A stretch of 64,000 bases of DNA. Source: a bacterium (GTDB lineage: Bacteria; Patescibacteriota; Patescibacteriia; Patescibacteriales; UBA12465). Below are positions 4,209 through 40,922 of the stretch, piece after piece. A program made the position numbers and the translations under genes. Position 1 is the first letter of the stretch, and each line of letters begins with the position of its first letter. The notes under the pieces were generated by a model that ran no database searches, was not told the origin of the DNA, and saw only the letters and a list, made by a program, of their open reading frames with translations. The stretch spans positions 10,754-74,753 of the forward strand of contig JAJZRB010000001.1 of assembly GCA_021806615.1 (NCBI GenBank). The letters run 5' to 3'.

Positions 4209-4213
4209 ATTTT

Positions 4214-6311: not shown

Positions 6312-6322
6312 AAATTTATTGA

Positions 6323-6997: not shown

Positions 6998-7001
6998 GTT
7001 T

Positions 7002-8528: not shown

Positions 8529-8532
8529 ATGT

Positions 8533-9975: not shown

Positions 9976-9976
9976 A

Positions 9977-25600: not shown

Positions 25601-27569
25601 CGGAATTCTCTGGATTGCAATTACCATAATTCAAAGTATTTTTTAGATAAGAGACTTTCCGGCCGCTAGGATCGCTGAAAGACTGGCAGGTATTATTTAT
25701 AGACTGGCAGGCATCAGTACCAAAATTCCAGGTCCGTTTCTCTTCGTTGCAATAGCCGTAAGATTCACAGCTGCCGTCGCTCTTTTCTACGATACAAGTC
25801 TGATTATCGGCGCAATAATTATCAGCGCGGGTGATGTTCACCGTGCTGGAAGCCGCCGTCGCCCCCGGCACTATCATAGTATTCAGGATCTGGGCGCCGA
25901 CGCCTTCTTTCGCACAATAGTTAAGAGGAGATTTCAAGACCCAATTCGGATCGACCAAGCCTTCGCACCAGCTGCGATCGGGTTGGAAATCGGTGCTGAA
26001 AGTATTATATTGATCGTTCTTATCAAAACAAGAAACCAGATCCCTAAGAGTCGCCTTGCGGGGCGGATCGTTTTCCACGAGTTTCTTGGCGGCCTCTTCC
26101 CAACCGGCCGGTACGATGCGATGTGCGCGCAAAATCATGATATTGCGCAAAGAATAGCTGCTATTATAGCTGGATCCGGAGCTATCGGCAGTAATCGGCC
26201 AATCTTCATGCAAATATCCTTCTTGGATAGCCTCGGCCACCGTCTTCTTTTCCGCTATAGCCTGCATGAACTTATCATCAATGACGCAATTATCCGGCCC
26301 GGGATTCTTCGGATCAGGGCAGATAGCCAAAGACGATAAGATATCATAATCGGTTCTGACGCCGAATTTCGGCTGTAAGAGAGAGCTGGTTACTTCCTTG
26401 ACGGCTGATTCCCCGTAAGTCACGTTGGGATCGCTCTCATAATTGCTGCTGGCGTAGCTGCTTCCGCTACTACCGCTTTTCTTGGCTAGATTCTGTAAGA
26501 GATTATTAAAGGCGGAAACGTATAATTGATTCAGGAAAATATTAGCTGAATCTATTAAAATATCGCCGGTCGTCTTGCCCAGCGCGTCCTGCCGGGCTTT
26601 AGCCGCGGCATCCGCTTCCCTTTGCGCCTCGCCAGGTACGCCCTGGATAGCGCCGGAAATATCGCGCACATCCAGGAACCCTCCTTTGGTTATAAAATCG
26701 CTTTTCGTCACTTCCGTGTGGATATTGGCCTGGCTGGAAAGGTCGGATCTGGCGGTCACGTAAATGCCGAGGTCATTAGAACGTGGATCGAAGATGCTCG
26801 TAAATTCGTCCAAATAATTTGGATCGCGCAAATCAGCCAATTTTTTATTGATATCGTCCCCCCAGCTCTTAATCATCTGGGAAGCCGTACAATTCGGGCC
26901 TTGCGGCCGGTTCTGGTCCACTAGCCCTAAGCCGATCTTTATCTTAGCCTCTAGCGAGGACGGGCTGCAGACGTTGAAAGAAGGAGTAACATTGCCGACA
27001 TTGCTGGAATTAGCGGTTTTAGAAGCACAAGCCGTAGCCACTTCATCCGCGCTCTGGATACAATAACGATAGCTAGAAGCGTCATTAGAAAATTCGGTGG
27101 CGCAATCTTTCACGGCCGCGTCATATTGATCCTGACAGGCCATATTTCTATCCGGCGTGTTCAGATTATTAACGAAGCTCTCTATAAAAGTCCCGGCCGC
27201 CTCATCGCCGGCCTGTTTCAAATAATCTCCCAAGCTCTGGGTAACGAATAGCGGTTTCTGCCCCTTACCGCCTGAACCGAGATAATTGGCGGAATCATAA
27301 GCTATCTTATTAAGCGCGGAAGCTAGGGTCCTCTGGAAAGCGATAGAGCCGGCCTTCTGAATAGCCGTTTTAGCGACATCCCAAGCCCGAGTCAGGAATT
27401 GTCCGATGACCTGCGGGATTGATAAAGTTTCTTCAGTCGGGATAGCCAGAGCCGGACGGACAGAAATGAATAAAGAGGAAAACAGCATGGCGATAACCAA
27501 CAAAAAAACCGCCAACTTCTTACCGGGTTGATTAGATTTTGTCTTTTTTGACGCTAGGAAAGAAGACAT
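19677..27569 (-). CDS. giant secreted/cell-surface protein (2630 aa), Cys-rich, with CBM-like beta-sandwich modules and a C-terminal PKD-like domain
   Basis: An uninterrupted 7.9-kb ORF. The N-terminal signal/anchor is KKLAVFLLVIAMLFSSLFISVRPALA. I counted roughly 90 Cys by hand. Carbohydrate-binding-module-like segments lie at about aa 708-869, 1189-1332 and 1888-2037 (e.g. YYDFENGLGDWT...FYLDDFVLSE). The C-terminus ISIKWGDGYEQ...HVFYHYYGQIGPKNIIITITD resembles a PKD domain. Confidence 0.9.
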   Translation of the reverse strand: MSSFLASKKTKSNQPGKKLAVFLLVIAMLFSSLFISVRPALAIPTEETLSIPQVIGQFLTRAWDVAKTAIQKAGSIAFQRTLASALNKIAYDSANYLGSGGKGQKPLFVTQSLGDYLKQAGDEAAGTFIESFVNNLNTPDRNMACQDQYDAAVKDCATEFSNDASSYRYCIQSADEVATACASKTANSSNVGNVTPSFNVCSPSSLEAKIKIGLGLVDQNRPQGPNCTASQMIKSWGDDINKKLADLRDPNYLDEFTSIFDPRSNDLGIYVTARSDLSSQANIHTEVTKSDFITKGGFLDVRDISGAIQGVPGEAQREADAAAKARQDALGKTTGDILIDSANIFLNQLYVSAFNNLLQNLAKKSGSSGSSYASSNYESDPNVTYGESAVKEVTSSLLQPKFGVRTDYDILSSLAICPDPKNPGPDNCVIDDKFMQAIAEKKTVAEAIQEGYLHEDWPITADSSGSSYNSSYSLRNIMILRAHRIVPAGWEEAAKKLVENDPPRKATLRDLVSCFDKNDQYNTFSTDFQPDRSWCEGLVDPNWVLKSPLNYCAKEGVGAQILNTMIVPGATAASSTVNITRADNYCADNQTCIVEKSDGSCESYGYCNEEKRTWNFGTDACQSINNTCQSFSDPSGRKVSYLKNTLNYGNCNPENSGCRQYSLFGAYATSTGTVSWSPNQIRYLNKNLSSCTGGDDGCTSLLRVKPTWGANLIMDADFTNDQIGDSSAGAKLNDWPIAGKASIVDASSEPGGASGKALKLTETDGPAGIYSDNNYSLLPNNFQAMPGQAYTLSADIYIMEGGDVSLAIGPASDGFTQSTGEKNSWQHLSVTRAGSASYNEAKFSVTGNPASAAVGAKITFYLKNLKFEMSDWDTGYSSYGASKFYEKILPPYLEKTCYVDATSATKNYNLKTGAPAVCSNYARKCNQSEVGCELYTAVKDKFAVGAKVTSADYCAADCLGYDVYISKASYFNSPSADNLIPDKATTCSATAVGCNEFTNLDALNQGGEQKEYYTQLKQCIKPSQASCANFYSWEGTANGYQLKAYSLEKTAASLPAVTADDSQLCNAAIYHLSVYDPGYNPDCREFYNVAGEVSYHLNSRTITCSDNCHAYRMSEKNIDRTIATQAGCQGSDKHWDNTNNNCVVCLNGGTWDLTAGACIYQAIPGEGQTCQANEKGCREYNGNNGNNVRLAAYYDFENGLGDWTSPTAGGISISSVANSNNGHSLRVAAGVSAQLAVGNIVSQGSAYTLKFLARAASDSNLTISFVNPATGASTSFSAVKVRGGNDWNIYQANLSDLDHAVALATTAQSGEILAVSGTSDFYLDDFVLSEVIDRYYLIKGSSQIPDVCYYDNFNHYQGADYNLGCAQYTDRGGLKHNLHNFTQLCSDSAVGCEQMIDTKNYLPYGAGFWENGVATSSCPVGSDPNCVKVDGDSAFYAVYDNSKLCGAASQGCSRLGEGQGGANFTGWSDVFKNNNPDQYSTALCSRDNVGCEAWKSAEDASLSYFKDPGTATCIYRVSNNSGLPGKRWYKIPVKRCDLNGNGSIDISEGIGKACNADADCGAQKCLIDNNDYECPVSYLKTIGSGGADVQIPTPQDNAGLCDAGASTCSEYIDPVSRFSPNLVANPNYQCAASGCDGWGGASPEKWQNVTPASDQQVIKLQPYTLYSLQVDYSGSANTPVGLDFLADVLRLDNNVLANPAKHLEVNNDNPLLFYSSGNTVALVSGGKNDRTISVKTSIVSYQLQKNLEDTCNGQTKYDNGCILFNERSINGASGPANLNWDAYATEDGKTPVLCSATGSCTANKLVKVRPDRVCAQWLDCTSYVLDPVTKKKTCYSFAQCDRLDNKGECADFVNQSSPTYYFNPKVNQNATGYSLVDKYSLSAMGLVGQTITIDGSFDNGNTGCLNSSTATLIDNPEAAKNETDYPADGKGYLKVPDNGTCDIAQNISVKATPSDQFFINYLVNTKNAGGGSAMITITDDKGTLIKLLSQSPTGWERKIQRFNLSVGQRKIKITLGADPTAPSTGSVYFDDINIEPVLKISSDNYAAPECRLYPTSDSLTCLSKNKNVVSEGLYGYCLEHDPLNKNVCLLWYPMDNIPLPSMSTMGYSGDFPVNYCTAVSGNFDLMEKRRAYRLNGFDDDALYVYNENGDFIKDLGDPVGTGCNGFSADCYGCFKFNTTGRFAAAVISSSHGALACPADYDMWISSKECNGGSCQDHYNFMCIPKADRLELIDNPNANYGDSVNGGNWELCQNSGDTYKTGYAKFNGFAGHEADVIAQDLDPNPNLKIADRNNVVTTDSLKLIPGTSSIATTSGAYFHIACSQLVQTVNNNGVNAAWVNRVAPGSSFSLASSSPFFAQNYTQSMEKPPFGAANSIANIVAGDSLLTLKDMAKTDLPYAGRPYGCINGGTAKNCSLIGSCSGAPNTYCLATSSSVNISAKTCGTSGPCQPLWVATTTNITDYANVLKNIFLKATGYLVKGSSQTYVNQNIPFDFTLNGLSGALPHPCPGGVRPATDFTKNPEPSFCAIFPKLDNINLYYNDSKTTLTSNNTYDVKQKGIYRLEFTSKVDPEQEPLKQISIKWGDGYEQIVTNQDDHPNSGDPHVFYHYYGQIGPKNIIITITDNWDFYVNN

Positions 27570-27573
27570 TTGT

Positions 27574-28194
27574 TTATTGAGTTTGATTCTGCTTATTTAA
27601 AGTTTCCTGATAGCTTTTCATCAAATCAACATCGCTTATCTTTTCCAATTCAGCTTTGTTAGCGCCGCTGGCGATTAAGAGCTGGCGCAGGGTCGCGGCG
27701 TCAATCTTGCCGCTAAGCGCATTCTGAAGGGCTGTTGAATCGGTCCCGGAAGCATTAAGGTTCTCAGGTGTCGTTGAAGCGGACTCAAGCGGAGCTAGAG
27801 TCGCGGGAGTGCCAGTGGCCACTGGAGCGAGAGCATTGCAATTCTGGCCCTGCGGACAATTAGGATCAGTTCCCTGGTCTATTTCTTTCTTATCCGGAAT
27901 GCCATCGCTATCCGTATCCTCTAAATAAGGAGAGGTATGATAAACGTAAATCTCATCATAATCTGACAATCCGTCGCCGTCCGTATCCCGGCTCTTTAAA
28001 ACGGCGGCTATATCGGTAGAGCTGGCGCTCTGGCTGACATTGGCATTAAGCGGATATGAGAAAGGATGGTTGATCTGGGCTTTCATCTGCCAAACCCAGA
28101 AGATGACGATTAAAACGGCCAAGACAGCTAAAATGCTGACGGCGATCTTTTGCGGCTGCGGCAAGCGGCCAGAATTTGAGCTTAATTCGTTCAT
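27574..28194 (-). CDS. membrane-anchored protein with thrombospondin type-3-like calcium-binding repeats
   Basis: The ORF-track start at 28197 is GTG and the ATG is at 28194. It has one TM segment (IAVSILAVLAVLIVIFWVW). Two DxDxDGxxDxxE repeats follow (DTDGDGLSDYDE and DTDSDGIPDKKE), then DQGTDPNCP. Confidence 0.7.
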   Translation of the reverse strand: MNELSSNSGRLPQPQKIAVSILAVLAVLIVIFWVWQMKAQINHPFSYPLNANVSQSASSTDIAAVLKSRDTDGDGLSDYDEIYVYHTSPYLEDTDSDGIPDKKEIDQGTDPNCPQGQNCNALAPVATGTPATLAPLESASTTPENLNASGTDSTALQNALSGKIDAATLRQLLIASGANKAELEKISDVDLMKSYQETLNKQNQTQ

Positions 28195-28220
28195 CACTTA
28201 TATAGTTTTAGTCAATTTTA

Positions 28221-29139: not shown

Positions 29140-31554
29140 CTATTTAACGACGATATTAAGAAGTCTTTTCGCCACGAAAATTTTCTTGACTACAGTCTTT
29201 CCGTCCAGCCATTTTTTAATGGTTTCATTATCCTGGACCAATTCCCAGGCCTCTGTTTCAGATATGTCAGCCGAAACTTCCAGAGTCGCCCTTAGTTTAC
29301 CGTTTATTTGGATAACTAGATTTACCATTTCATCGCTGATTAGCGCGGCGTCATATTGGGGCCAAGATGATTGGAAAATACTTTCTGAATGTCCTGAACT
29401 CTCCCAAAGTTCTTCGCTCAAATGCGGAGCGAAGGGGGCGAGGATCTGCAGAAGCAAACTGCCTTCGGTTTTATCTACTCTGAACTTCCCTAATTCATTG
29501 ACCAAGATCATCAAAGCGGAAATAGCCGTATTGAAACGGAAATTTTCAATATCTTCGCCGACTTTTTTGATCGTCTTGTGAAGCAATGACAAGGTTTTTT
29601 TATCAATCGCGCTATTAGCATGGTCGCCAGCGATAAGCTGTTCTACTTTTTCCAAGAATTTCCGCGTACCGATGAGGCCATTCGTGCTCCAGCTGGTCGC
29701 GGCCTCAAAAGGACCCATGAACATTTCGTAAACGCGAGTCGCGTCCGCTCCGAATTTTTTTACCATTTCATCCGGATTGATGACATTCCCCCAGCGCTTG
29801 CTCATTTTCCGCCCATCCTCGCCCATGATAAGCCCGACGTGCTTTAATCTGATGAAAGGTTCGCCATAGCTGACCGCGCCGATATCGAATAAGAACTTAT
29901 GCCAGAAACGGGCGTAAATCAGGTGACGGGTAGCGTGTTCGGCGCCGCCGACATAAAAATCTACCGGCGACCAATAAGCTTCCTTCTTCTTGTCTACCAG
30001 GGCCTTATCATTATGCGGATCAATATAGCGCAAATAATACCAGCAGGAGCCTCCCCATTGCGGCATAGTATTGGTCTCGCGCTTTCCCGCTCCGCCGCAT
30101 TTCGGGCATTTGACATTGACCCAATCAGCCATAGCAGCGAGCGGCGACTCGCCGGTCCCTGTCGGCTCATAGCTTTTTACTTCTGGCAAAACCACGGGCA
30201 AATCAGCCTCCGGCACGGGAACGACGCCGCAGGCCGCGCAATGGATAAGAGGAATCGGCTCACCCCAGTATCTCTGACGCGAGAATACCCAGTCTTTTAT
30301 CTTATAATTTACCTTTCTCGCGCCGAATTTATTTCTTTCCAGCCAGCGCGTCATTTTCTCTCTCGCTGTCTCAGAGCTCAAGCCGGAAAATTCTCCGGAA
30401 TTTATCAGATAGCCGTCTTCCGTATAGCAAGCCCCCGCCGAAGCTTTGCCGTAGCTGGCGTCGGAAGAAACTGACGACCGGATAGGACAATCATGATTTT
30501 TCGCGAAATCCCAGTCTCTTTCATCATGAGCCGGTACGGCCATGACAGCGCCGGTACCGTAGGAATTCAGGACATAGTCGGCGGCAAAGACAGCCACTTC
30601 TTCTTGATTGAATGGATTAAGGGCTTTTATTCCCTCCAGAACGATGCCGGTTTTCTCTTTATTCAAATCGGTTCTCTGTAAATCAGTTTTATTTTTCACA
30701 GATTCCAGATATTTTTCTACGGCTGTCCAATTTTTTATTTTCCCGCACAATCTGGGAATAAGATCATTCTCCGGAGCTAAGACGACATAGGTGCAGCCGA
30801 AAATAGTGTCTACGCGGGTCGTAAAAACTTTTATATTCTCTTCCGTTCCCAAGACAGGAAAGATGATTTCCGCTCCTTCGCTCCGGCCGATCCAATTTTT
30901 CTGCATTTCCTTGATAGATTCTTCCCAGTCCGGCAATTTATCTAAATCCTGTAATAGCCGTTCAGCATAATCAGTAATCTTGATCACCCATTGGCGCATC
31001 GGCTTCAATTCTACTTCGCTGCCGCAGCGCTCGCAGCGCCCGTCTTCTAAATCTTCATTGGCTAAGCCCGTCTTGCAAGACGGGCACCAATTGATAGGCT
31101 CATTGGATTCATAGACCAAGCCTTTCTCAAACATCTTTAAAAAAGCCCATTGCGTCCATTTATAATAGGCGGGGTCCGTCGTATTCACTTCCCTTTCCCA
31201 ATCATAAGAAAAGCCTAAAAGTTCCAATTGTTTCTTATAGGTCGCGATATTTTCCTCGGTAGCCACGCGCGGATGGATTTTATTCTGGATAGCATAATTT
31301 TCTGTCGGCAGGCCGAAAGCATCCCAGCCCATCGGGTGCAGGACATTATAACCCTGCATCAAGCGCAAACGGGCTAAAACGTCGGTGGCGATATAGCCTT
31401 TCGGATGTCCGACATGCAGGCCGACGCCAGACGGATAAGGAAACATGTCTAAGATATAATATTTCGGCTTCTTCCGGTCTTCGGACGTTTTATATAGCCC
31501 GCTCGCCTGCCAACGCTTACGCCATTTTTTTTCCAGTGCTTGATGATCGTACAT
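29140..31554 (-). CDS. leuS: leucyl-tRNA synthetase
   Basis: 804-aa ORF with the HVGH (HIGH) motif in PYPSGVGLHVGHPKGY and KMSKR (KMSKS). The N-terminus (KWRKRW...YKT) is typical of LeuS. Confidence 0.97.
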   Translation of the reverse strand: MYDHQALEKKWRKRWQASGLYKTSEDRKKPKYYILDMFPYPSGVGLHVGHPKGYIATDVLARLRLMQGYNVLHPMGWDAFGLPTENYAIQNKIHPRVATEENIATYKKQLELLGFSYDWEREVNTTDPAYYKWTQWAFLKMFEKGLVYESNEPINWCPSCKTGLANEDLEDGRCERCGSEVELKPMRQWVIKITDYAERLLQDLDKLPDWEESIKEMQKNWIGRSEGAEIIFPVLGTEENIKVFTTRVDTIFGCTYVVLAPENDLIPRLCGKIKNWTAVEKYLESVKNKTDLQRTDLNKEKTGIVLEGIKALNPFNQEEVAVFAADYVLNSYGTGAVMAVPAHDERDWDFAKNHDCPIRSSVSSDASYGKASAGACYTEDGYLINSGEFSGLSSETAREKMTRWLERNKFGARKVNYKIKDWVFSRQRYWGEPIPLIHCAACGVVPVPEADLPVVLPEVKSYEPTGTGESPLAAMADWVNVKCPKCGGAGKRETNTMPQWGGSCWYYLRYIDPHNDKALVDKKKEAYWSPVDFYVGGAEHATRHLIYARFWHKFLFDIGAVSYGEPFIRLKHVGLIMGEDGRKMSKRWGNVINPDEMVKKFGADATRVYEMFMGPFEAATSWSTNGLIGTRKFLEKVEQLIAGDHANSAIDKKTLSLLHKTIKKVGEDIENFRFNTAISALMILVNELGKFRVDKTEGSLLLQILAPFAPHLSEELWESSGHSESIFQSSWPQYDAALISDEMVNLVIQINGKLRATLEVSADISETEAWELVQDNETIKKWLDGKTVVKKIFVAKRLLNIVVK

Positions 31555-31558
31555 ATAT

Positions 31559-32323
31559 TTATAGCTCCAACCCGACAGGGGCGTGATCAGAGCCGGTTAT
31601 TTTATCTAAAATATAAGCCTTTTTTACCATTTTCTCCAGTTTAGCGGAGACGCAGAAATAGTCAATCCGCCAACCGACATTGCGTCGCCGAGCGCCGGCC
31701 CGGAAACTCCACCAAGAATATTGGATCTGACGGCCGTTCTTAAGCCGAAAAGTATCGATGAATCCGGATCGCAGGAAGTCGCTCATCCAGGCCCGTTCCT
31801 CTATAGTAAACCCGGCATTGCCCTCATTTTCTTTCGGACGCGCTAAATCTATCTCTTCATGGGCGACATTAAAATCGCCGGTAACAATGACCGGCTTATT
31901 TTTTTCTAATTTCCGGATATATTTTAATAAGGCGGCATTAAATTCTAATTTATACGGGAGGCGCGTCAATTCATGGTTGGCGTTCGGAAAATAAACGTTT
32001 AATAGATAGAATCTGTCTGTTTCCAGGGTCTGGACTCGCCCTTCAGTATCAAATTTCTTGACGCCGAAACCATTCTTGACCGTTTTTATCCCCTTGGCTC
32101 CCCGACGGACTAAGATAGCGGTGCCGCTATAGCCCGGACGCTCGGCTGAATTCCAATATTCGCCATAACCGGCGAAATCAAACTCTAAAGTCGATTTGGC
32201 CGCGGCGGAAATCTTGATTTCTTGCAGGCATAGAATATCCGCCTGAGTAGCGATCAGAAACTTATCAAAGCCTTTTTTCGCGACCGCCCGGATACCATTT
32301 ATATTCCAAGAGATTATTTTCAT
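31559..32323 (-). CDS. xth: exodeoxyribonuclease III
   Basis: 254-aa ORF with MKIISWNINGIRA, DILCLQEIK and a C-terminal SDHAPV motif. Confidence 0.93.
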   Translation of the reverse strand: MKIISWNINGIRAVAKKGFDKFLIATQADILCLQEIKISAAAKSTLEFDFAGYGEYWNSAERPGYSGTAILVRRGAKGIKTVKNGFGVKKFDTEGRVQTLETDRFYLLNVYFPNANHELTRLPYKLEFNAALLKYIRKLEKNKPVIVTGDFNVAHEEIDLARPKENEGNAGFTIEERAWMSDFLRSGFIDTFRLKNGRQIQYSWWSFRAGARRRNVGWRIDYFCVSAKLEKMVKKAYILDKITGSDHAPVGLEL

Positions 32324-32329
32324 ATCTTA

Positions 32330-32338
32330 TGATATAAT
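32330..32338 (+). promoter_or_regulatory. candidate extended -10 promoter for the dsbA-like/por block
   Basis: The plus strand reads TGATATAAT (a TG-n-TATAAT extended -10), 37 nt upstream of the ATG at 32376. I saw no good -35 element. Confidence 0.4.
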
Positions 32339-32342
32339 ATAA

Positions 32343-32371
32343 AGTATAGTTTAAATTAAGCAATATTTCAA
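32343..32371 (-). promoter_or_regulatory. candidate sigma70-type promoter for xth and the downstream minus-strand block
   Basis: The reverse complement of 32343-32371 reads TTGAAA-N17-TATACT (spacer tattgcttaatttaaac). The -10 hexamer ends 19 nt upstream of the xth ATG, implying a very short leader. Confidence 0.45.
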
Positions 32372-32375
32372 TCAT

Positions 32376-33134
32376 ATGAATCCGGACGCCAGGCTCACTG
32401 AACGGCTGAAATACGCCGCCATGAAAGCGCGCCATAAGAATATCCTGCAACCTTGGTACAAGAGGTGGTGGGGCATCATCATCTTGATAATTTTATCCCT
32501 GATACTGATCCTCTTTATTTATTCTAGCCTCTATGTCATAAGCAAGACTCAGGAAATTATTTCCGGCAAGAACCAAGCGATGACTGAGGCTGAACGCCAG
32601 GCTTATTTAGGAAGCGTCTATGGCGACGGGACGAATTACTATCTGGGCAGCCGTACGCCGCAAGCCACAATCGTAGAATTCGGCGATTTTGCCTGCCCTT
32701 ATTCCAGAGAATCAGCTCCGATCATCAAGAAATTGGCCGAAGAATACCAGGGTAAGCTAAAAGTAGTCTGGCGCGATTATCTGCGTAATAGCGACTCTAT
32801 CGATTTGGCTATGGCGGCGCGTTGCGCCGGCGAGCAGGGAAAATTCTGGGAGATGCACGACCTCCTTTTTGCTAATCAGGATAATCTGACGACGAATGAC
32901 AGTTCCCGGCCCGGGAAATTAACGGCTTTAGCCGGCAGCCTGCAATTAGATACGGCTAAATTCGACTCGTGCTTAAGCTCGCAAAAATATTTGGAAGAAA
33001 TAAAAAAAGATTATAACGACGGCAACGCCCTGCAAATAATCGGGACACCTAGCTGGTTTGTCAATAATTATCCGATGTCCGGAGCTCTTTCGGAACAGAA
33101 ATTCCGAGAGCTGATCATGGGCATTATCAAATGA
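32376..33134 (+). CDS. membrane-anchored DsbA-family thioredoxin-fold protein with a CPYS (monothiol) active-site motif
   Basis: 252-aa ORF with an N-terminal TM segment (WWGIIILIILSLILILFIY). It has a DsbA-like core (EFGDFACPYSRES...GKFWEMHDLLF...IGTPSWFVNN). The active site reads Cys107-Pro-Tyr-Ser110 (TGC CCT TAT TCC at 32694-32705) rather than CxxC. Confidence 0.8.
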   Translation: MNPDARLTERLKYAAMKARHKNILQPWYKRWWGIIILIILSLILILFIYSSLYVISKTQEIISGKNQAMTEAERQAYLGSVYGDGTNYYLGSRTPQATIVEFGDFACPYSRESAPIIKKLAEEYQGKLKVVWRDYLRNSDSIDLAMAARCAGEQGKFWEMHDLLFANQDNLTTNDSSRPGKLTALAGSLQLDTAKFDSCLSSQKYLEEIKKDYNDGNALQIIGTPSWFVNNYPMSGALSEQKFRELIMGIIK

Positions 33135-33135
33135 G

Positions 33136-33684
33136 ATGGAAAATATCCGCATCCACGGCCGCGGCGGCCAAGGCGTCGTCACAGCCGCTGAACTAATAGC
33201 TATCGCCGCTTTCTACGAAGGCTGGGAAGCGCAGGCCTTCCCTAATTTCGGGGTGGAAAGGACCGGCGCGCCCATCCAATCTTTCGTCCGCGTTGATGAT
33301 AAGCCGATAATCACCCGGGAACAGATTTACCGCCCCACGATCTTGATCATCCAAGACGCAACCCTTATCGGTGCGGTAGACGTCTTCGCCGGCGCGACTC
33401 AGAAAACGACCGTCATAATCAACGCCGCCAGAAATATCTGGCCGGAACTGAAAAATAAATTTCCCCGCCTTTACCTTACCCCCGCCACGGAAATCGCCTT
33501 GGAAATATTTGGAAAAAATATAGTCAACACCGTCATCCTGGGCGCCTTAGCGAAAAATACGAAGATAGTCTCTTTGGATTCGTTAAAAAAGGCGATACGC
33601 GAAAAATTCGCCGCCAAAGGCGAGGCGGTAATTGCTAAGAATATATTGGCCATCACTAAAGATTATGAAAAGATCAAAAATTAA
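33136..33684 (+). CDS. porC: pyruvate/2-oxoacid:ferredoxin oxidoreductase, gamma subunit
   Basis: 182-aa ORF with the N-terminus MENIRIHGRGGQGVVTAAELIA typical of POR gamma. Confidence 0.9.
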   Translation: MENIRIHGRGGQGVVTAAELIAIAAFYEGWEAQAFPNFGVERTGAPIQSFVRVDDKPIITREQIYRPTILIIQDATLIGAVDVFAGATQKTTVIINAARNIWPELKNKFPRLYLTPATEIALEIFGKNIVNTVILGALAKNTKIVSLDSLKKAIREKFAAKGEAVIAKNILAITKDYEKIKN

Positions 33685-33946
33685 ATTAGAAACCAAAGCT
33701 AATAGCAGCTTAAATAACAAAACCGGTCCCTGGCGTACGCATAAACCAATAACAGATTATGCAGCGTGCATCGGCTGTTCGCTCTGCGCCAAGATCTGCC
33801 CTGAGTCTTGCATCGCCATGGAAATCCGGACTGATTCGCCTAGATTAAAACCGGTGACTGACTATGATTATTGCAAAGGCTGCGCCCTATGCGCACGCGA
33901 ATGTCCGGTCAAAGCCATCAGGATGGAAGAAGATATCGCCGCCTAG
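33665..33946 (+). CDS. porD: pyruvate:ferredoxin oxidoreductase, delta subunit (2x[4Fe-4S] ferredoxin)
   Basis: Two Cys clusters are present (CIGCSLCAKICP and CKGCALCARECP). I place the start at the internal ATG 33665 (MKRSKIK...), which overlaps the porC end by 20 nt. The ORF-track start at 33632 is less likely. Confidence 0.85.
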   Translation: MKRSKIKLETKANSSLNNKTGPWRTHKPITDYAACIGCSLCAKICPESCIAMEIRTDSPRLKPVTDYDYCKGCALCARECPVKAIRMEEDIAA

Positions 33947-33962
33947 CGGCCATCTATCGATT

Positions 33963-35183
33963 ATGCCAAAAAACGAAAAACAAATCTTAGAAGGTTCGCG
34001 AGCGATAGCGCTGACGATAAAAAATATCGGACCAGCGGTCGTTTCCGCCTATCCGATAACTCCGCAAACGCATATCGTCGAAGACTTGGCGGAATTCAAA
34101 GCCGACGGCCGATCTGGTTTTGAGTATGTCCGTGCCGAAAGCGAGTTTGCCGCCGCTTCTATCATATTGGGCGCTTCGGCAACCGGCGTCCGGGTTTATA
34201 GCGCGACGAGCTCGCAAGGGCTATTATTGATGACCGAGGTCGTCCATAATATCGCGGGTTTGCGCCTTCCAGTCGTCATGACCTGCGCCAACCGGGCGAT
34301 TTCTTCGCCAATAAACATCTGGAATGACCACAGCGATGTCATAACCGTCCGCGACGCCGGCTGGATCCAGTTGTTCGCCGCCAATCACCAAGAGGCGGTC
34401 AATCAGCATGTCTTAGCCTATAAGCTGGCGGAAAAGCTGAGACTGCCGGTCATGATCAATGTGGACGGTTTTATCCTGACACACTCCTATGAACCGGTCG
34501 TCATCCCTGGCCGCGAAAAGATAAGGAAATATCTGCCCGCTTACCGGCCGAGCGCCGGATCATATTTGGACCCTAAGAATCCGGTTACGCTCGGGGCTTT
34601 TTTCACGCCGCAGGATTACATGGAAACGCGGGAACAGCTCCATCATGATCTCGTAGCCAGCTTGCCCATGATAAAGAATGAATATCAGGCTTGGAAAAAG
34701 ATCTTCCATCCATCCGATGACGAGGCATCCGGCCCGAAAACTCCCGGCCGGATGAATATTGATAACGGCTTAATCAGCTACTATGGCCCGCAAAAACCAG
34801 ATACGGTCGTCATCGCTCTCGGCTCGGTCATCGGCACTATCCGTTCCGCCTTGAGAGATAATCCGAGGATAGGAGTCCTAAAAATAAAAGTCTATCGCCC
34901 TTTCCCGGCGGCGGAAATCGCCACCTGCCTCCAAAACGCCAAGAATGTAGCGATCATAGAAAAAGCCGTCAGCCTCGGCCAGGCCGGACCACTATATACG
35001 GACATTGCCGCCGGATTGACGGAAGTGGAAACTGGCAGCCTTTCTAAATACAATAAAAGATTGAATTTAAAGAATTATATCGTCGGATTAGGGGGACGGG
35101 ATGTGACCGAAAAGATGATTATAGAAATCGCCAAAGATGTGCCGAAGAAAAACCATTATTTAAAATTTATCGGCCAAATATGA
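33963..35183 (+). CDS. porA: pyruvate:ferredoxin oxidoreductase, alpha subunit
   Basis: The start is taken at ATG 33963 (MPKNEKQILEGSRAIALT...VSAYPITPQTHIVE), 14 nt after the porD stop. The ORF-track extension back to 33864 overlaps porD. The stop TGA is at 35181-35183. Confidence 0.9.
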   Translation: MPKNEKQILEGSRAIALTIKNIGPAVVSAYPITPQTHIVEDLAEFKADGRSGFEYVRAESEFAAASIILGASATGVRVYSATSSQGLLLMTEVVHNIAGLRLPVVMTCANRAISSPINIWNDHSDVITVRDAGWIQLFAANHQEAVNQHVLAYKLAEKLRLPVMINVDGFILTHSYEPVVIPGREKIRKYLPAYRPSAGSYLDPKNPVTLGAFFTPQDYMETREQLHHDLVASLPMIKNEYQAWKKIFHPSDDEASGPKTPGRMNIDNGLISYYGPQKPDTVVIALGSVIGTIRSALRDNPRIGVLKIKVYRPFPAAEIATCLQNAKNVAIIEKAVSLGQAGPLYTDIAAGLTEVETGSLSKYNKRLNLKNYIVGLGGRDVTEKMIIEIAKDVPKKNHYLKFIGQI

Positions 35184-36313
35184 AAACAATAAAAATCTTG
35201 AAAGTCGCCTTCGTCATCGCTTTCACTCTGCAAATCGGGGCTACAGTAGCCTTAGTAAGTTCGCCGCAGAAAGCTTGGGCAGCCGACCCGACTCCATTAG
35301 AATTCACCCCGCAAGTCAAGCTGCCATTAACCGGCCTTAACCAGGATACGGTCAAGGTCGGAAGTTACAATACTAAATCCGGCATGATGACTAGCGACCT
35401 CTTAGCTAAATATATCCAGGGCTTTTATAATTACGGCATGATGGCGGCCAGCATCCTAGCGGCCATCGTCCTGATGGGCGGCGGCGTCTTATGGCTCACT
35501 TCCGCCGGCAGTGATTCCCGGATAACGCAAGCCAAGGAACTTATCGCCGGGAGCATTACCGGGCTTGTCATCCTCTTCAGTTCCTGGATAATCTTACATA
35601 CTATCAACCCGGATTTATTAAAATTAAAAGTATTGGAGACTAAACTCATCGATAATAAGGCTTTGCAATCGCGGCTAGACTGCCAATACCGTTGTATAGA
35701 CTCGGGGAGCAAATGTGAAGGCGGCGGCGGACATGATACTATAGATGCGACTAGTCCTTGGAAAAGCACGAGCATGGATATCTGCAAAGTCGTAGTCGGA
35801 GACGTGCCGACCAGCTCTTGCCCGACTGCCAAATTCTATGACTGTTGCTGCCAGAATAAATATAATGCCACGCCGGAGGAAGGGCCTAAGATAATGGCTT
35901 GCCTGACCGGCGCCGGAAAAGCGATGCCGGACGGCAGCAGCTGCTATATAAAAGAAACAGGCATACACGGCTATTGCCAGACGATTAAGGACAGCCGGGG
36001 CGGAGCCAATAAGACGGAATGCATGACCTGCCGAAAAACCGGAGACCTGTGCTATAATAACGTCTCTAATGACTATGAGTGCGCTAATAGCCAAGGGTTG
36101 TGCGGAACCGGCGTTCCTGGCGGCAGCAATAATTCAAAATATACCGGCGGCGATTGCAATGCTTCGCCGACAAACGGCAGTTTCTCAGCGCAAGCTCTCG
36201 CTTCTATTGAAGCGACGGCAGTCACCTGCAATAAAGTCAATCATTTCGGGCCATGGCTGTTCTCTTGGCTCACCGGAGATTTAGAGACTTATGTGGAATG
36301 CAAGTGCAAATAA
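35180..36313 (+). CDS. secreted/membrane protein: signal peptide + TrbC/VirB2-like (T4SS-pilin-like) two-helix hairpin + C-terminal Cys-rich domain
   Basis: 377-aa ORF. ATG 35180-35182 overlaps the porA TGA (an ATGA overlap). The signal peptide ends in ...SPQKAWA. The hairpin at aa 83-150 is ILAAIVLMGGGVLWLTSAGSDSRITQAKELIAGSITGLVILFSSWIILHTINPDL. The last ~215 aa hold 20 Cys, including a CCC triplet. The pilin-like call (cf. Pfam PF18895) is from memory of that family's pattern. Confidence 0.75.
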   Translation: MKTIKILKVAFVIAFTLQIGATVALVSSPQKAWAADPTPLEFTPQVKLPLTGLNQDTVKVGSYNTKSGMMTSDLLAKYIQGFYNYGMMAASILAAIVLMGGGVLWLTSAGSDSRITQAKELIAGSITGLVILFSSWIILHTINPDLLKLKVLETKLIDNKALQSRLDCQYRCIDSGSKCEGGGGHDTIDATSPWKSTSMDICKVVVGDVPTSSCPTAKFYDCCCQNKYNATPEEGPKIMACLTGAGKAMPDGSSCYIKETGIHGYCQTIKDSRGGANKTECMTCRKTGDLCYNNVSNDYECANSQGLCGTGVPGGSNNSKYTGGDCNASPTNGSFSAQALASIEATAVTCNKVNHFGPWLFSWLTGDLETYVECKCK

Positions 36314-36342
36314 CCCAGTTTTACTAAACTTTTAGTTTATCT

Positions 36343-37215
36343 ATGAATAGACCCCCTAAAAAATTCTTATCTCCCGGACATAACGCCTGCGCCGGCTGCG
36401 GCCAGCTCGTTGCCGTCCAGGCGGTCATGCGCGGCCTGGACGAAGATACGATTATCGCCAACGCGACCGGCTGTTTGGAGGTAACGACGACCGCTTATCC
36501 GCAAAGCGCCTGGGGCCTGCCTTGGATACATTCCCTATTTGAAAATGCCGCCAGCGTCGCCTCCGGAATCAAAGCCGCCCTGAAACAGAAGAAGGACGGA
36601 AAGACAAAAGTCTTGGTCCAAGGCGGAGACGGCGGAACTTATGATATCGGCCTCGGACTAATCAGCGGTATGTGGGAACGAGGCGAAAACATACTTTATG
36701 TCTGCTACGATACTGAAGCCTATTCTAATACCGGCATCCAGGCCTCAGGGGCGACGCCCTATGGCGCCAGTACGACGACGACTCCCAAAGGATCTGAATC
36801 TATCGGCTCAACGCAGGCTAAAAAAGATATGTTAGCCATCGCTTTGGCGCACGGCTTGAAATACGCCGCCCAAAGCACGGCCGGATACCCGGACGATATT
36901 ACGAACAAAGTGAAGAGGGCTCTAGACGTAGACGGACCTTCTTATCTCCAGATCCTGTCACCCTGTATCCCGGGCTGGCAAATAAATAATGATGAGGCCG
37001 TTTTCATGGGCAAGCTGGCGGTAGAGACCGCTCTTTACCCGCTTTTAGAATACAAGGACGGGATTTTGAATGCCTCGAGCATTACGGGCAGCTTCCGGGC
37101 GAAGCCAGTCGCGGAATATTTAAAAAAACAAGGGCGTTTCAAAAATTTATCGGAAGAAGATCTCAAGCACATCCAAAGCTTAGCTGATGCTAATCTTAAA
37201 CGTTACCGCTTATGA
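36343..37215 (+). CDS. porB: pyruvate:ferredoxin oxidoreductase, beta subunit (TPP-binding)
   Basis: 290-aa ORF with SPGHNACAGCGQ near the N-terminus and the TPP motif GGDGGTYDIG. Confidence 0.9.
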   Translation: MNRPPKKFLSPGHNACAGCGQLVAVQAVMRGLDEDTIIANATGCLEVTTTAYPQSAWGLPWIHSLFENAASVASGIKAALKQKKDGKTKVLVQGGDGGTYDIGLGLISGMWERGENILYVCYDTEAYSNTGIQASGATPYGASTTTTPKGSESIGSTQAKKDMLAIALAHGLKYAAQSTAGYPDDITNKVKRALDVDGPSYLQILSPCIPGWQINNDEAVFMGKLAVETALYPLLEYKDGILNASSITGSFRAKPVAEYLKKQGRFKNLSEEDLKHIQSLADANLKRYRL

Positions 37216-38669
37216 AAAAAACGACATTCATCAAGTTAGCCGGATCCTTTCTTTTCTTCCTGCTCCTGCCTCTTGCGGCGAGCGCCAATTGCATGTGGTC
37301 TTTGAATAACAAATGCGAAGATATCGGCACGACCAATAATTGGATCCTGGCGACCAAGGAAACTTTTTGCAGCGGAACCAAGCCGAATGGCCAGACCGCC
37401 AAGTGCTGCTGCGCTAACGGCGATATTCCTGGCTGTTGTGAAAAAAAAGATACGAACGGCGTCATCACTACCGCCAATATGACAGGCGAAAATTGCCAAG
37501 CTATTACTTCGGTATCTACTACTTTCTATCAAGATAAGGAAGCGGATAATAACACGTGCGTCAAGAAAGGTTCGGTCGGCTGCGCCTGGAACAGGGTGGT
37601 CACTAACGGGCAAACTACGGCTACGGAGTGTAGCGGCGATAAGAAGCTGTCCGGAGACGATAGGTGCCCCGCCCCTAAGCCGGCGGATACGACGAACGCT
37701 CACTCTTCCTGCTGCTGCCCGGCGCCGGTAGATAAGCCCGGACCGGCAGCCACGCCGCCTAAATTTATAATGCCGGAATTACAGATCCCTATCCCCGGAT
37801 TATCTTTAACCAAAACGAGCGCTATCAAATATACGGCGAATGAAGACGGCAGCTATCAAGTACAGATCCCTTGGCTCTCGGAATATATTTTAGCCATTTA
37901 TAAATACGGGCTGAGTATCGCCGGCATTCTAGCCGCCCTTATACTCATGGCCGGCGGCGCCCTTTGGCTTGTCTCTGGCGGCGACGCTTCTAGGGTCACC
38001 CAGGCGAAGGAACTGATCGCCGGCAGCGTTACCGGCCTCATTATCTTATTTTCTTCTTACATCATTCTCATCCAGATCAATCCTGATTTAGTCCAGCTGA
38101 AACCGATAACTATCGGGACCATACAAGGGGTAGACCTGGTCAGCGACGGAAGCGACAGCCAAAGCAACCTGAGCTCAACGGCCAGCTGCTTATCGGATGC
38201 GGATCTAGTCAATATTACCGGCATCGTTAACACGAGCAACGTCAGCGATCCGCGCCTGTCTAAGAATGCTTACGAGGGCCTGAAAAAAGCTATCGCCGAA
38301 GCCAAGAAACAGGGCGTCGAATTGACGGTGACGAGCGCCAATCGCTCTTACGCCAAGCAAAAATCGCTCTGGGATGCGGAACTTAAGAAATTTAACGGCG
38401 ATACCGCCAAAACCCGGAAATATGTCGCCGACCCCGCCAACTGTACCGGCAATAAATGCTATAGCCACTGCGCCGGAGTAGCTATAGATGTCTGCATCAA
38501 AGGCAGCAAATCCTGCGGCATGCTGAGCTCAGCTTATGCCAGCAATAACAGCGATCCTGATATCATCAAGCTGCAGAGTATCATGAAGGCGGCGGGTTGG
38601 CTCAGATATTGCGGCGAATGGTGGCATTTCCAATACGGCCTGGCTCCGGGCAAATCATGTTCGCCTTAA
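37212..38669 (+). CDS. secreted/membrane fusion protein: signal peptide + Cys-rich domain + T4SS-pilin-like hairpin + C-terminal M15 (VanY-like) D,D-peptidase domain
   Basis: 485-aa ORF. ATG 37212-37214 overlaps the porB TGA (an ATGA overlap). The first ~170 aa hold 16 Cys (KCCCANG, GCCEKK, SCCCPAP). The hairpin at aa 230-297 is 47/68 identical to that of 35180-36313. The C-terminus carries LTVTSANRSYAKQKSLW, SHCAGVAIDV and GEWWHFQY (H-x-x-G-x-A-x-D and E-x-W-H zinc-peptidase motifs). Confidence 0.8.
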   Translation: MKKTTFIKLAGSFLFFLLLPLAASANCMWSLNNKCEDIGTTNNWILATKETFCSGTKPNGQTAKCCCANGDIPGCCEKKDTNGVITTANMTGENCQAITSVSTTFYQDKEADNNTCVKKGSVGCAWNRVVTNGQTTATECSGDKKLSGDDRCPAPKPADTTNAHSSCCCPAPVDKPGPAATPPKFIMPELQIPIPGLSLTKTSAIKYTANEDGSYQVQIPWLSEYILAIYKYGLSIAGILAALILMAGGALWLVSGGDASRVTQAKELIAGSVTGLIILFSSYIILIQINPDLVQLKPITIGTIQGVDLVSDGSDSQSNLSSTASCLSDADLVNITGIVNTSNVSDPRLSKNAYEGLKKAIAEAKKQGVELTVTSANRSYAKQKSLWDAELKKFNGDTAKTRKYVADPANCTGNKCYSHCAGVAIDVCIKGSKSCGMLSSAYASNNSDPDIIKLQSIMKAAGWLRYCGEWWHFQYGLAPGKSCSP

Positions 38670-38675
38670 ACAGAT

Positions 38676-38705
38676 AAAAAAACCGCCGATCGGCGGTTTT
38701 TTATT
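38676..38705. terminator. bidirectional rho-independent terminator between convergent genes
   Basis: The sequence aaaaaaaCCGCCGATCGGCGGtttttt holds a perfect 14-nt GC-rich palindrome (38683-38696). An A-run lies on its left and a T-run on its right. It sits between the stops at 38669 (+) and 38720 (-). Confidence 0.85.
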
Positions 38706-38719
38706 TTATCGGCTATTCC

Positions 38720-39124
38720 TTATCGAGTGGCGCCATCCATGGCTTCGTTAGCTAGGCTATCCGCTCGTTCATTCCGCTCCCGCGGGATATGCGTATACCT
38801 AATCTTCTTAAATTTCAAGGACAGATTATGCAAGCTTAAGAACAAGGGCGCTAAATCCTTATTCTTTACCTTATATTCATGCTTCAACTGCTTGACTACC
38901 AATTCGCTGTCTAAGAAGAAATCCAATTCGTCGGCTCCTAATTCCAGCGCTTTCTCGGTCGCGGCGATAACCGCCCGATATTCAGCTTGGTTATTAGTAG
39001 CCACTCCTAAAAATCTGGATATTTCAGCGGCCACGCGGCCCTTCTCGTCATAAATAACCGCGCCTATTCCGGCCGGACCGGGATTGCCTCGCGCTCCGCC
39101 ATCAGTATAAATTATCAGCTTCAT
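38720..39124 (-). CDS. rnhA: ribonuclease HI
   Basis: 134-aa ORF with MKLIIYTDGGARGNPGPAGIGAVI, NNQAEYRA and a C-terminal ERNERADSLAN, which together give the DEDD catalytic pattern. Confidence 0.85.
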   Translation of the reverse strand: MKLIIYTDGGARGNPGPAGIGAVIYDEKGRVAAEISRFLGVATNNQAEYRAVIAATEKALELGADELDFFLDSELVVKQLKHEYKVKNKDLAPLFLSLHNLSLKFKKIRYTHIPRERNERADSLANEAMDGATR

Positions 39125-39128
39125 ATTA

Positions 39129-40922
39129 TTAAGCCTTATCTTTTAATTTTATATCGACTATCTTTAACTGCGGTTCGCGGCGTCCGTTAAATTCATTGAC
39201 TTCCAAATAATAGGCCAGATCTATACGGTCGCCGATCTGTAAGTTCTGATATTCCTGGGTGCCGCCGAAAGCGAGGGCCCAGATGGCGCCGCTACGGCTC
39301 TTAGCCGCTTCAAGCGGATCAGCCGGACTGAGGCGCAATTTGATATGCTGCCTGTCGAAACCCATGGTCACGATATCGTCAATGCGCAGATCATAGCTCG
39401 CTAGGCGCGGCTGCGGATTATTCTGGCCATAGGGTGCGAATAAATCCAGCTTTTCCGCCAGCTCTAAATTGAGCATTGAGAAATCTAAAGTGGCTTCTAT
39501 CTTTAATTTTGGCACCAGGGAAACTGATTTCAAGCTGACCGCCGCTAATTCCAAGAGCTTGTCCTGGAAATGCCGCAGATTCTCTTCCCCAATCAAGGAG
39601 AAGCCGCAGGCCATAGGGTGGCCGCCGTATTTATCTAGATAAGGCGCCCCTTCTTCGACAGCGGCGATAAGATTGAATTCTTCTATGGAGCGTCCTGAGC
39701 CTTTGAAAGATATCTTTTTAGGGACTAATTTCTTCGTAACTGGATCAAACTCCGCCTCCTCTATCAAACGAGTGATGATCAAAGTCGGTCGATAATATTT
39801 TTCAGCTATCCGGCCGGCCACTAGGCCGATGACGCCTTCATTCCAGATCTGCTCTGGTCCGGCGACACCGAAAATAACGAGCGGCAGGTTATCAGGATCG
39901 ATCTGCTCTTCTACTTGAGCGCTGATTTCTTCGGTGATCTCCTGACGGCTTATATTGCGGTTGTTAAGTTCAACGGCCAGCTCCTTGGCTTCGTCCGCGT
40001 CCTTGGTAGTCAAAAGCGCGAAAGCGCTATTAGCGTGAGCTAAGCGGCTGGCGGCGTTAAGCCGCGGCCCGATTTGCCAACCGATATTCCAGGCTTGGAG
40101 CGGACGATCGCCGTTGATCTTAGCGATCTTTATCAATTCGCTCAGCCCTAAACGTTTATTCTGATTCAAAACTTTCAAGCCATCCTTGACTAATTGGCGA
40201 TTTTCGCCCAATAGGCTCACCATATCGGCTACAGTACCGACAGCCACTAGATCCAAACACCTCTCGCTGATAAGATTTCTTTGCTTATCACTTAAATTCG
40301 CTTTAGCCAGGAGAGCGCTGACTAATTTGAAAGATACGCCCACGCCGGCCAGATATTTCCAGGGGTAATTATCATGGCGGTCGGAAGGATTTATATAAAG
40401 GCAGGGCGGCAGATCCGTTTCTTGTTCCGGCAAGACATGGTGATCGGTCACGATAATGTCTAGGCCTAATTTTTGAGCGTACTGGACCTCTTCTTTATTC
40501 CTGATACCGTTATCTACCGTAATTATAAGCTTAAAGCCCTGTTCGGCAATCTGATTGATGGCCGCCTTATTCAAGCCATACCCTTCGGAGACACGATCCG
40601 GCAGATAAACTTCGGCCCGGCCGTGCAGGATATTCAAAGTTTCCAGGAGAATGACGGAAGAGGTCACTCCGTCAGCATCATAATCGCCATAAACGACGAT
40701 CTTATCGTTCTGCTTGATGTGACTAATGATGAGATCGACGGCGGCAGCCATATTCTTGAATAAAAAGGGATCATAATAGGGCGCCACGCTGAAAAAAGAG
40801 CGGATAGACGCTTCATCTTCCAGCCCGCGATTATAAAGCAATTGCAGTATGAACGGATCTATATCCGGATGCCTAGCGACAAGATCCGAGCTGATCTTAG
40901 GTTTGATTTGCCATTCTTTCAT
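39129..40922 (-). CDS. recJ: single-stranded-DNA-specific exonuclease RecJ
   Basis: 597-aa ORF with DHH-family motifs VVYGDYDADGVTS, ITVDNG, IVTDHH and GGHPMACG. Confidence 0.9.
   Translation of the reverse strand: MKEWQIKPKISSDLVARHPDIDPFILQLLYNRGLEDEASIRSFFSVAPYYDPFLFKNMAAAVDLIISHIKQNDKIVVYGDYDADGVTSSVILLETLNILHGRAEVYLPDRVSEGYGLNKAAINQIAEQGFKLIITVDNGIRNKEEVQYAQKLGLDIIVTDHHVLPEQETDLPPCLYINPSDRHDNYPWKYLAGVGVSFKLVSALLAKANLSDKQRNLISERCLDLVAVGTVADMVSLLGENRQLVKDGLKVLNQNKRLGLSELIKIAKINGDRPLQAWNIGWQIGPRLNAASRLAHANSAFALLTTKDADEAKELAVELNNRNISRQEITEEISAQVEEQIDPDNLPLVIFGVAGPEQIWNEGVIGLVAGRIAEKYYRPTLIITRLIEEAEFDPVTKKLVPKKISFKGSGRSIEEFNLIAAVEEGAPYLDKYGGHPMACGFSLIGEENLRHFQDKLLELAAVSLKSVSLVPKLKIEATLDFSMLNLELAEKLDLFAPYGQNNPQPRLASYDLRIDDIVTMGFDRQHIKLRLSPADPLEAAKSRSGAIWALAFGGTQEYQNLQIGDRIDLAYYLEVNEFNGRREPQLKIVDIKLKDKA

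Follow-up and report, generated by a model that had tools for sequence, protein, structure and literature searches.

Why should the genes for two mutually binding subunits of a central fermentative enzyme be held apart by the gene for a surface protein? The question is raised by a 64-kb stretch of bacterial DNA (contig JAJZRB010000001.1 of assembly GCA_021806615.1, referred to over its full length as the window), whose + strand carries a por block, encoding a putative pyruvate:ferredoxin oxidoreductase (POR), in which a membrane-protein gene stands between porA (alpha subunit) and porB (beta subunit) and a second such gene follows porB. These two genes are called pil1 and pil2 here. An earlier note on this DNA had described the split, had observed that each of the two genes is joined to the por gene before it by an ATGA overlap, and had proposed that the expression of two envelope proteins is hard-wired to the enzyme. 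Comparison with related genomes indicates an old and regular gene order that is apparently undescribed. As far as homologous loci can tell, a broad clade of Patescibacteria (candidate phyla radiation, CPR), with genomes that carry the labels Falkowbacteria, Parcubacteria or Patescibacteria, normally has its por genes in this order. It is probably best explained by an ancient, fixed insertion into one operon, whose inserted genes would be co-expressed with the por genes and coupled to them by termination-reinitiation.

Canonical porCDAB operons, also written porGDAB, are known from archaea and from bacteria such as Thermotoga and Helicobacter. The locus in the window shares with them the same four subunits in the same gamma-delta-alpha-beta order, with intact domains and invariant cluster and thiamine pyrophosphate (TPP) motifs. 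It differs from them in that a 1.1-kb membrane-protein gene splits alpha from beta, another gene of this kind is joined to that for beta, and a DsbA-like gene leads. The contiguous order that is broken here is typical of the operon and is not a requirement of the enzyme. The block consists of seven + strand genes, namely those for a DsbA-like thioredoxin, porC, porD, porA, pil1, porB and pil2, and is bordered on either side by minus-strand genes. It begins one gene before the start given in the earlier note, as the DsbA-like gene had been missed.

Conservation of the split in Patescibacteria

Species representatives of GTDB were scanned with a PorA alignment, the best 80 of at least 594 PorA matches were kept, and their loci (designated below by L numbers) were classified by tblastn and open reading frame (ORF) analysis. 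The Patescibacteria counts include the window, which the names on its homologues place in this group. A pilin-like gene directly follows porA in 28 of the 32 informative Patescibacteria loci and in none of the 49 por loci from outside the group. It lies between porA and porB in 21 loci, and in seven the contig ends after it and before porB. The two por genes are adjacent in three loci (L032, L033 and L036), and in one (L030) porA is followed by glycogen-metabolism genes with no porB within 7 kb; two further contigs end at porA and are uninformative. Outside the Patescibacteria, porB starts 30-250 nt past porA wherever it is visible, as against a separation of 1159 nt, containing pil1, in the window. 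Almost every Patescibacteria locus has the DsbA-like gene ahead of porC, and 0 of the 49 loci from other phyla and archaea have it. The comparison with related genomes that the earlier note had proposed thus bears out a lineage-specific and stably fixed insertion. Its view that the arrangement is unusual holds in that no rationale for it is known, and does not hold within this lineage, where the arrangement is the norm.

In a neighbour-joining tree of PorA, all Patescibacteria fall into one clade, and adjacent porA and porB are limited to one small subclade. This tree fits either an early single insertion with later loss or an insertion just after the adjacent-state subclade had split off. No surface gene was found beside por in the unsplit genomes, where the gene after porB is uvrA in L032 and L036 (by Pfam) and one of the same size in L033. 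The nearest relatives of the window are ~60% identical at the protein level, and three relatives whose pil1 is 50-55% identical show the complete seven-gene order together with both 4-nt overlaps. In L031 an inversion has moved dsbA-porC-porD to the opposite strand, while porA-pil1-porB-pil2 has been kept with ATGA at porA/pil1. Both in L031 and in L027, dsbA-porC-porD is inverted and an exonuclease III-like gene lies directly upstream of porA, the operon being broken between porD and porA.

The comparisons of composition and of possible scars proposed in the earlier note were also made. The G+C content, the G+C content at third codon positions and the relative synonymous codon usage of pil1 and pil2 match those of the por genes and their neighbours, with no foreign signal, and this match rules out a recent insertion or horizontal transfer of the two genes. 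Neither insertion scars nor meaningful flanking repeats were found around either inserted gene, where there are only short chance repeats; a 16-nt TTTAAAATTTATCGGC family lies within coding sequence at unrelated positions.

According to a study of complex assembly, the order of genes in operons follows assembly, and adjacent genes encode interacting subunits (Cell Rep 2016, PMC4742563). Set against this rule, the sampled por loci from outside the Patescibacteria comply, with alpha and beta adjacent, whereas the Patescibacteria clade consistently breaks it with an apparently functional enzyme. A full-text literature search returned no account of a por operon into which pilin-like genes are interspersed.

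The enzyme and the proteins encoded with it

Four separate subunits with gamma, delta, alpha and beta domains make up a four-subunit 2-oxoacid:ferredoxin oxidoreductase of the POR/VOR type (PorCDAB), with TIGR02175 and TIGR02179 above their cut-offs. In an alignment with bacterial and archaeal PorB, the cluster cysteines C16, C19, C44 and C208 and the TPP/Mg motif GDG...N (G95-D96-G97, N129) are invariant, and porB, so far as its reading frame and motifs go, is apparently intact. The best NCBIfam matches are Por equivalogs that score below their trusted cut-offs (PorA_Arch 405 against 550 bits, PorB 355 against 405). Judging from its domains, this is a four-subunit 2-oxoacid:ferredoxin oxidoreductase of the ordinary kind, and its substrate call lies under the NCBIfam equivalog cut-offs. 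A gene for an ADP-forming acetyl-CoA synthetase (46908-48893, - strand; CoA_binding_2, Succ_CoA_lig and ATP-grasp_5) lies 8 kb away. By its domains it is the expected partner of POR, and because it is nearby, POR is assigned to an ATP-yielding route from pyruvate to acetate.

The features of the block are collected in Table 1. The coordinates, domains and order of the six ORFs described in the earlier note match the ORF calls and the Pfam and NCBIfam assignments. Its ATGA overlaps can be read directly in the sequence, and its strong bidirectional terminator is a perfect palindrome usable on both strands. The DsbA-like gene, the first of the block, ends 1 nt before porC. porD has an ATG start and a 20-nt overlap with porC, which is identical (-20) in L006 and L011. 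For porA the start at ATG 33963 is backed by homology, although the longest ORF begins at 33864. No structured RNA was matched by Rfam anywhere in the window.

Table 1. Positions and characteristics of the features of the por block, counted from the first nucleotide of the window
Feature	Position	Strand	Characteristics
Candidate operon promoter, extended -10	32330..32338	+	TGATATAAT; 38-46 nt upstream of DsbA-like start; putative function
DsbA-like thioredoxin gene	32376..33134	+	Thioredoxin_4 85.6 bits, DSBA 59.7 bits, both above cut-offs
porC, gamma subunit	33136..33684	+	PF01558 E=2e-38; PorC/KorC TIGR02175 186 bits (cut-off 81)
porD, delta subunit	33665..33946	+	Two [4Fe-4S] ferredoxin motifs; Fer4_21; TIGR02179 89.9 bits (cut-off 60)
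porA, alpha subunit	33963..35183	+	POR_N E=5e-69, PFOR_II E=2e-19; best NCBIfam PorA_Arch, 405 bits
ATGA overlap, porA stop TGA / pil1 start ATG	35180..35183	+	Reads ...CAAATATGAAAA
pil1, inserted gene	35180..36313	+	377 aa; sole Pfam match PF18895 T4SS_pilin, E=1.1e-5, residues 75-140
Possible internal promoter, perfect extended -10	36050..36058	+	TGCTATAAT; inside pil1, 285 nt upstream of porB
pil1-porB spacer	36314..36342	+	29 nt; no Shine-Dalgarno motif; weak AT-rich 6-bp hairpin TAAACT-TTT-AGTTTA
porB, beta subunit, TPP-binding	36343..37215	+	TPP_enzyme_C E=1e-19; best NCBIfam PorB, 355 bits
ATGA overlap, porB stop TGA / pil2 start ATG	37212..37215	+	Reads ...GCTTATGAAAA
pil2, appended gene	37212..38669	+	485 aa; PF18895 E=1.4e-4, residues 222-285; VanY/M15, residues 348-476
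Bidirectional intrinsic terminator	38677..38702		Perfect 13+13-nt palindrome AAAAAACCGCCGA/TCGGCGGTTTTTT, flanked by A and T runs

The two inserted genes encode proteins of one plan, which is that of VirB2/TrbC: from their hydropathy, an N-terminal signal peptide precedes two hydrophobic helices, which a short charged loop connects. In Pil1 the VirB2-like hairpin spans ~residues 88-142 and is accompanied by an F-x-P-Q-V-x-I-P motif and a C-terminal head, and all 20 cysteines are located C-terminal to the hairpin. In Pil2 the hairpin spans ~residues 226-294, with 16 cysteines between signal peptide and hairpin and 8 beyond it. Under the VirB2 topology, all cysteines of Pil1 (20) and Pil2 (24) are predicted to be extracytoplasmic, which fits the co-encoded DsbA-like protein. 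The scores against PF18895 (25.8 bits for Pil1 and 22.3 for Pil2) lie just under the gathering cut-off of 26.6. Because 26 of 27 first-slot and 15 of 15 second-slot orthologues match the family at E<0.01 (best E=9e-10), the homology of the hairpin is credible although the window proteins miss the cut-off. An AlphaFold2 model of Pil1 from a 25-sequence alignment has helices at residues 74-107 and 112-142 (predicted local distance difference test 69.7, predicted template modelling score 0.38). The structural match of its hairpin to the archaeal conjugation pilin 8dfu is non-significant (E=6.5). For the fold of the Cys-rich head, neither Foldseek against the PDB (no match at E<1) nor a profile search of PDB sequences returned a match.

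The C-terminal domain of Pil2 matches VanY (35.5 bits, cut-off 25) and Peptidase_M15 (33.1 bits, cut-off 27), and in the PDB it weakly matches YodJ, an LD-carboxypeptidase. Its zinc and catalytic motifs (H-x6-D and E-x-x-H) are present as S-H-C-A-G-V-A-I-D and E-W-W-H, and from these residues the VanY/M15 cell-wall peptidase domain is intact. The domain thus resembles the VanY/LdcB-type M15 peptidases such as that of Bacillus subtilis (YodJ, PDB 4ox3), whose zinc-ligand motifs it keeps, and differs from them in sitting behind a Cys-rich head and a VirB2-like hairpin.

The two slots vary in different ways among the relatives. In the first slot the signal peptide, the F-x-P-Q-V-x-I-P motif and the hairpin are conserved, and the Cys-rich head is alignable among closer relatives only, where it has 8 invariant cysteines and 6 more at >=90%. 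Second-slot proteins retain the hairpin and a Cys-rich N-terminal region, but their enzymatic head varies by lineage. The window and L043 have a head of the VanY/M15 type. L011 and L019 have a 3D domain, and L025 (second gene) and L029 align with these two and yield one further Pfam match to it between them. In L031 the head is NlpC/P60, and in L002, L004, L006, L012, L013, L016 and L025 it is an H...D...H-type domain without family assignment. What is conserved is thus the slot, whereas the catalytic module in it has been exchanged.

The earlier note had spoken of T4SS-pilin-like surface components, that is, of components resembling the pilins of type IV secretion systems (T4SS). VirB2-like PF18895 genes are common and variable in Patescibacteria and often form arrays near virB4, according to the passages on pilin genes in a recent study (Microb Genom 2025, doi 10.1099/mgen.0.001409; preprint 10.1101/2025.01.22.634366). 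Pil1 and Pil2 share with the proteins described in those passages a signal peptide, a two-helix hairpin whose loop is short and charged, membership of PF18895 by sequence match and high variability among paralogues. They differ from them in being larger, with added heads, in being neither arrayed nor close to virB4, in having no T4SS gene in the 64-kb window and in standing inside a central-metabolism operon; the passages on pilin arrays in doi 10.1099/mgen.0.001409 do not mention por genes. The proteins here are not pilin-sized: their 377 and 485 residues, with Cys-rich and VanY/M15 domains, amount to 3-5 times the size of a pilin. Pfam scans of essentially all genes in the window found no T4SS machinery (VirB4, VirB6, coupling protein), and for this reason the term pilin-like, as a domain-level label on sequence similarity, is justified for the membrane hairpin alone. 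The earlier description thus stands for the two-helix anchor and not for the whole proteins.

The DsbA-like protein has one transmembrane segment (residues 34-52). Its active site is CPYS in the window, L002, L006, L016 and L035 and CxxC in the other 26 related loci compared. The change to CPYS is spread over several non-adjacent lineages, and such a protein may be an isomerase or a holdase rather than an oxidase.

Two irregular porB genes were also noted. In L051 (Omnitrophota; L051:8175-10757) the porB match is in two pieces ~1.6 kb apart (query residues 1-125 and 99-290), which suggests an insertion inside porB. In L006 (L006:9140-10017) porB appears as two ORFs in different frames near 9571-9583, either by a frameshift or by an assembly error in a metagenome contig.

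Expression of the block and competing explanations

Translational coupling at overlapping stop and start codons is known from trpE/trpD and trpB/trpA of Escherichia coli. The junctions described here likewise overlap by 4 nt in the ATGA manner, the start codon of the second gene falling within the stop of the first. However, the trp overlaps couple enzymes or subunits of one pathway, whereas here functionally unrelated envelope genes are joined to subunits of a cytoplasmic enzyme, and it is the interacting alpha/beta pair that is separated. Across 26 loci, the porA/pil1 junction is a 4-nt overlap in 12, an 8- or 11-nt overlap in four, a gap of 2-4 nt in two and a larger gap in eight; the porB/pil2 junction, compared in 14 loci, is a 4-nt overlap in eight, a gap of 0-5 nt in five and a gap of 15 nt in one. 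Judged by these orthologous junctions (12/26 and 8/14), the ATGA overlaps are evolutionarily retained. Within the window, 4-nt overlaps occur at 3 of 38 same-strand junctions, two of them being porA/pil1 and porB/pil2, and same-strand gaps are small throughout (median ~5 nt). The pil1-porB spacers of the tight subclade measure up to 54 nt and only a few nt in several loci.

The signals at the borders of the block are consistent with one transcription unit. The candidate promoter lies within a 52-nt divergent spacer shared with an exonuclease III-like gene, and 15 of 17 related loci have a TGnTATAAT at a distance of 40-70 nt ahead of the orthologous start of the DsbA-like gene, compared with 2 of 17 within 90 nt upstream of porB. 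The terminator closes the block, facing a convergent RNase H gene, and is the only strong one within 31500-39500. A hairpin directly 3' of the last gene is present in the window, L019, L028, L029 and L043; several loci also have terminator matches ~115 nt beyond the final gene, which fall within the conserved convergent rnhA coding sequence and were not counted. A hairpin scan found no internal terminator-like hairpins in 14 of 16 operons. Shine-Dalgarno-like motifs stand upstream of just 6 of 41 window genes, and their scarcity makes restart after termination plausible for these genes. In many relatives a conserved TTTTTCAAT(T/C)(T/A)T motif directly precedes the DsbA-like start; it may be an initiation signal independent of Shine-Dalgarno pairing.

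Taken at face value, these signals indicate that the inserted genes are very probably expressed together with the por genes. The sequence of events that we consider probable begins early in the clade, when the gene for a membrane-anchored, disulfide-rich surface protein would have entered between porA and porB. Most members have another gene of this type, with a peptidoglycan-hydrolase head, after porB, and the DsbA-like gene upstream of porC would predate the insertion. One mRNA would cover all seven genes, starting at the extended -10 near 32330-32338 and ending at the terminator. Ribosomes that end porA or porB would restart at the overlapping ATGA, such a restart being proposed because the organism is almost without Shine-Dalgarno sites, and the surface proteins would be made in step with the POR subunits. 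As to the reason, our best guess is that proteins of the envelope and of host interaction may ride on a strongly expressed core fermentative operon, and that the DsbA-like protein would serve the many extracellular cysteines of Pil1 and Pil2.

Several points weigh against this reading. Co-transcription and coupling are deduced from features of the DNA, and the survey covers the best 80 PorA matches. The flanking genes leuS-xth and rnhA-recJ-lepA are also syntenic in most loci, and for this reason a general stasis of the genome, and not selection, may account for part of the insertion's conservation. In L030, a glycogen synthase, a GH57 protein, a kinase and a PHP-domain protein are encoded after porA (L030:7001-13754), with no porB in the 7 kb fetched, so that, on this segment, alpha and beta appear either to be fully separated or beta to be lost. 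In a looser subclade (L014, L015, L017, L018, L020, L022, L034 and L035), the junction gaps are 34-290 nt, and unrelated small genes (23S-rRNA-IVP-like, GIY-YIG and PD-(D/E)XK) lie between por genes, which indicates that tight coupling is not obligatory. Finally, TGCTATAAT inside pil1 could, by its match to the extended -10, be an additional and separate promoter of porB.

Alternatively, the gene order might be a frozen accident, fixed by drift in symbionts of small population that rarely recombine, and kept solely by regional synteny, with the overlaps a by-product of genome compaction that has no regulatory meaning. The conserved flanks, the tiny same-strand gaps of the window, the full separation of porA and porB in L030 and the three genomes that show no visible consequence of being without the insertion all agree with such an accident, as do the further unrelated small genes that landed in the por gaps of one subclade. 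The latter look selfish and comprise 23S_rRNA_IVP/bAvd-like four-helix proteins and GIY-YIG and PD-(D/E)XK nucleases (L017:3043-3432, L020:3455-3799, L023:6590-6970, L033:6282-6638, L015:1450-1848 and L017:4500-4877); in that subclade the por genes may form a hot spot for insertions. However, drift would leave unexplained why the exact 4-nt overlap is kept at two junctions although the proteins are only 30-55% identical, why porA-pil1-porB-pil2 remained intact with its ATGA in the rearranged L031, and why the slot after porB is always occupied by a hairpin-anchored protein despite swaps among VanY, 3D, NlpC/P60 and another type of head. A frozen accident is therefore a serious but unlikely alternative.

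Somewhat less likely again is independent expression, in which transcription of the genes further along would start from promoters within pil1 and possibly also within porB, and the surface proteins would be regulated separately from POR. In addition to TGCTATAAT, the 3' part of pil1 in L008, L011 and L031 holds a perfect TGnTATAAT, two more sigma-70-like matches lie inside the window's pil1, and gaps of 170-1000 nt precede porB in some relatives. However, TGCTATAAT at 36050-36058 encodes a Cys-Tyr-Asn motif of the protein itself, none of the three closest relatives (L002, L004 and L006) has it, and with four copies of TGnTATAAT in the whole window, ~2.6 are expected by chance. Moreover, no terminator stands ahead of the pil1-internal motif, and a promoter at this position would supplement read-through and not replace it. 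The earlier term hard-wired is consistent with the lone conserved extended -10 upstream of dsbA, the few internal terminators, the short spacers and the scarcity of Shine-Dalgarno motifs, and is weakened by this possible extra promoter of porB.

A bolder version of the preferred insertion and coupling would make the POR operon a dedicated expression chassis for host-facing envelope proteins. Synthesis of a variable, disulfide-rich surface protein and of a cell-wall hydrolase would be locked mechanically to that of POR alpha and beta by termination-reinitiation, so that attachment and wall remodelling scale with fermentative flux; in its strongest form, the hairpin proteins would also organise POR at the membrane. 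We regard this version as improbable. A direct partnership, in which POR would be tethered or organised at the membrane by the hairpin proteins, or its electron output connected by them with the cell surface, is more doubtful still. Persistent gene linkage and Cys-rich heads speak for it and nothing else does, whereas the sole predicted cytoplasmic part is a loop of ~15 residues that is conserved across the whole PF18895 family and not just in its por-linked members. Every cysteine has a predicted position outside the membrane, the heads are hypervariable, those of the second slot being cell-wall hydrolases, and Pfam scans gave no haem or Fe-S family match in Pil1, Pil2 or their orthologues. 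A chimeric assembly or a newly acquired mobile insertion is practically negligible as an explanation, as nothing was found in its favour, the identical locus is present in an independent Logan assembly, composition is uniform, flanking repeats and mobile-element genes are lacking, and the recurrence of the locus in independent Logan, JGI, ENA and NCBI assemblies and in more than 25 species refutes it.

Neighbouring genes and significance

Elsewhere in the window, positions 175-11407 (- strand) hold six tandem paralogues of 476-508 aa, each ending in a PEP-utilizers mobile domain (PF00391) and with nothing else recognisable; a HAD hydrolase gene and two ORFs without assignment are interspersed among them. 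A 2630-aa protein whose only match is CBM_4_9 (19677-27569, - strand) adjoins a 207-aa protein with bacterial TSP3 repeats (27574-28197, - strand), and this pair is kept beside the locus in L002, L004 and L006.

The adjacency of genes for mutually binding subunits is thought to help assembly. A lineage-wide split of alpha and beta with an intact-looking enzyme would provide a natural counter-example for ideas about operon order, co-translational assembly and translational coupling. There is also a modest practical gain, as the locus can serve as a synteny marker for the clade, and annotators are warned that "pilin" here denotes a membrane anchor and not a pilus. Overall, the arrangement would supply presumed host-attached organisms with two surface proteins that are abundant by design, one with a fast-evolving Cys-rich head and the other with an exchangeable cell-wall hydrolase head. 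As surface proteins of such organisms with heads of this kind, Pil1 and Pil2 are candidates for host interaction.

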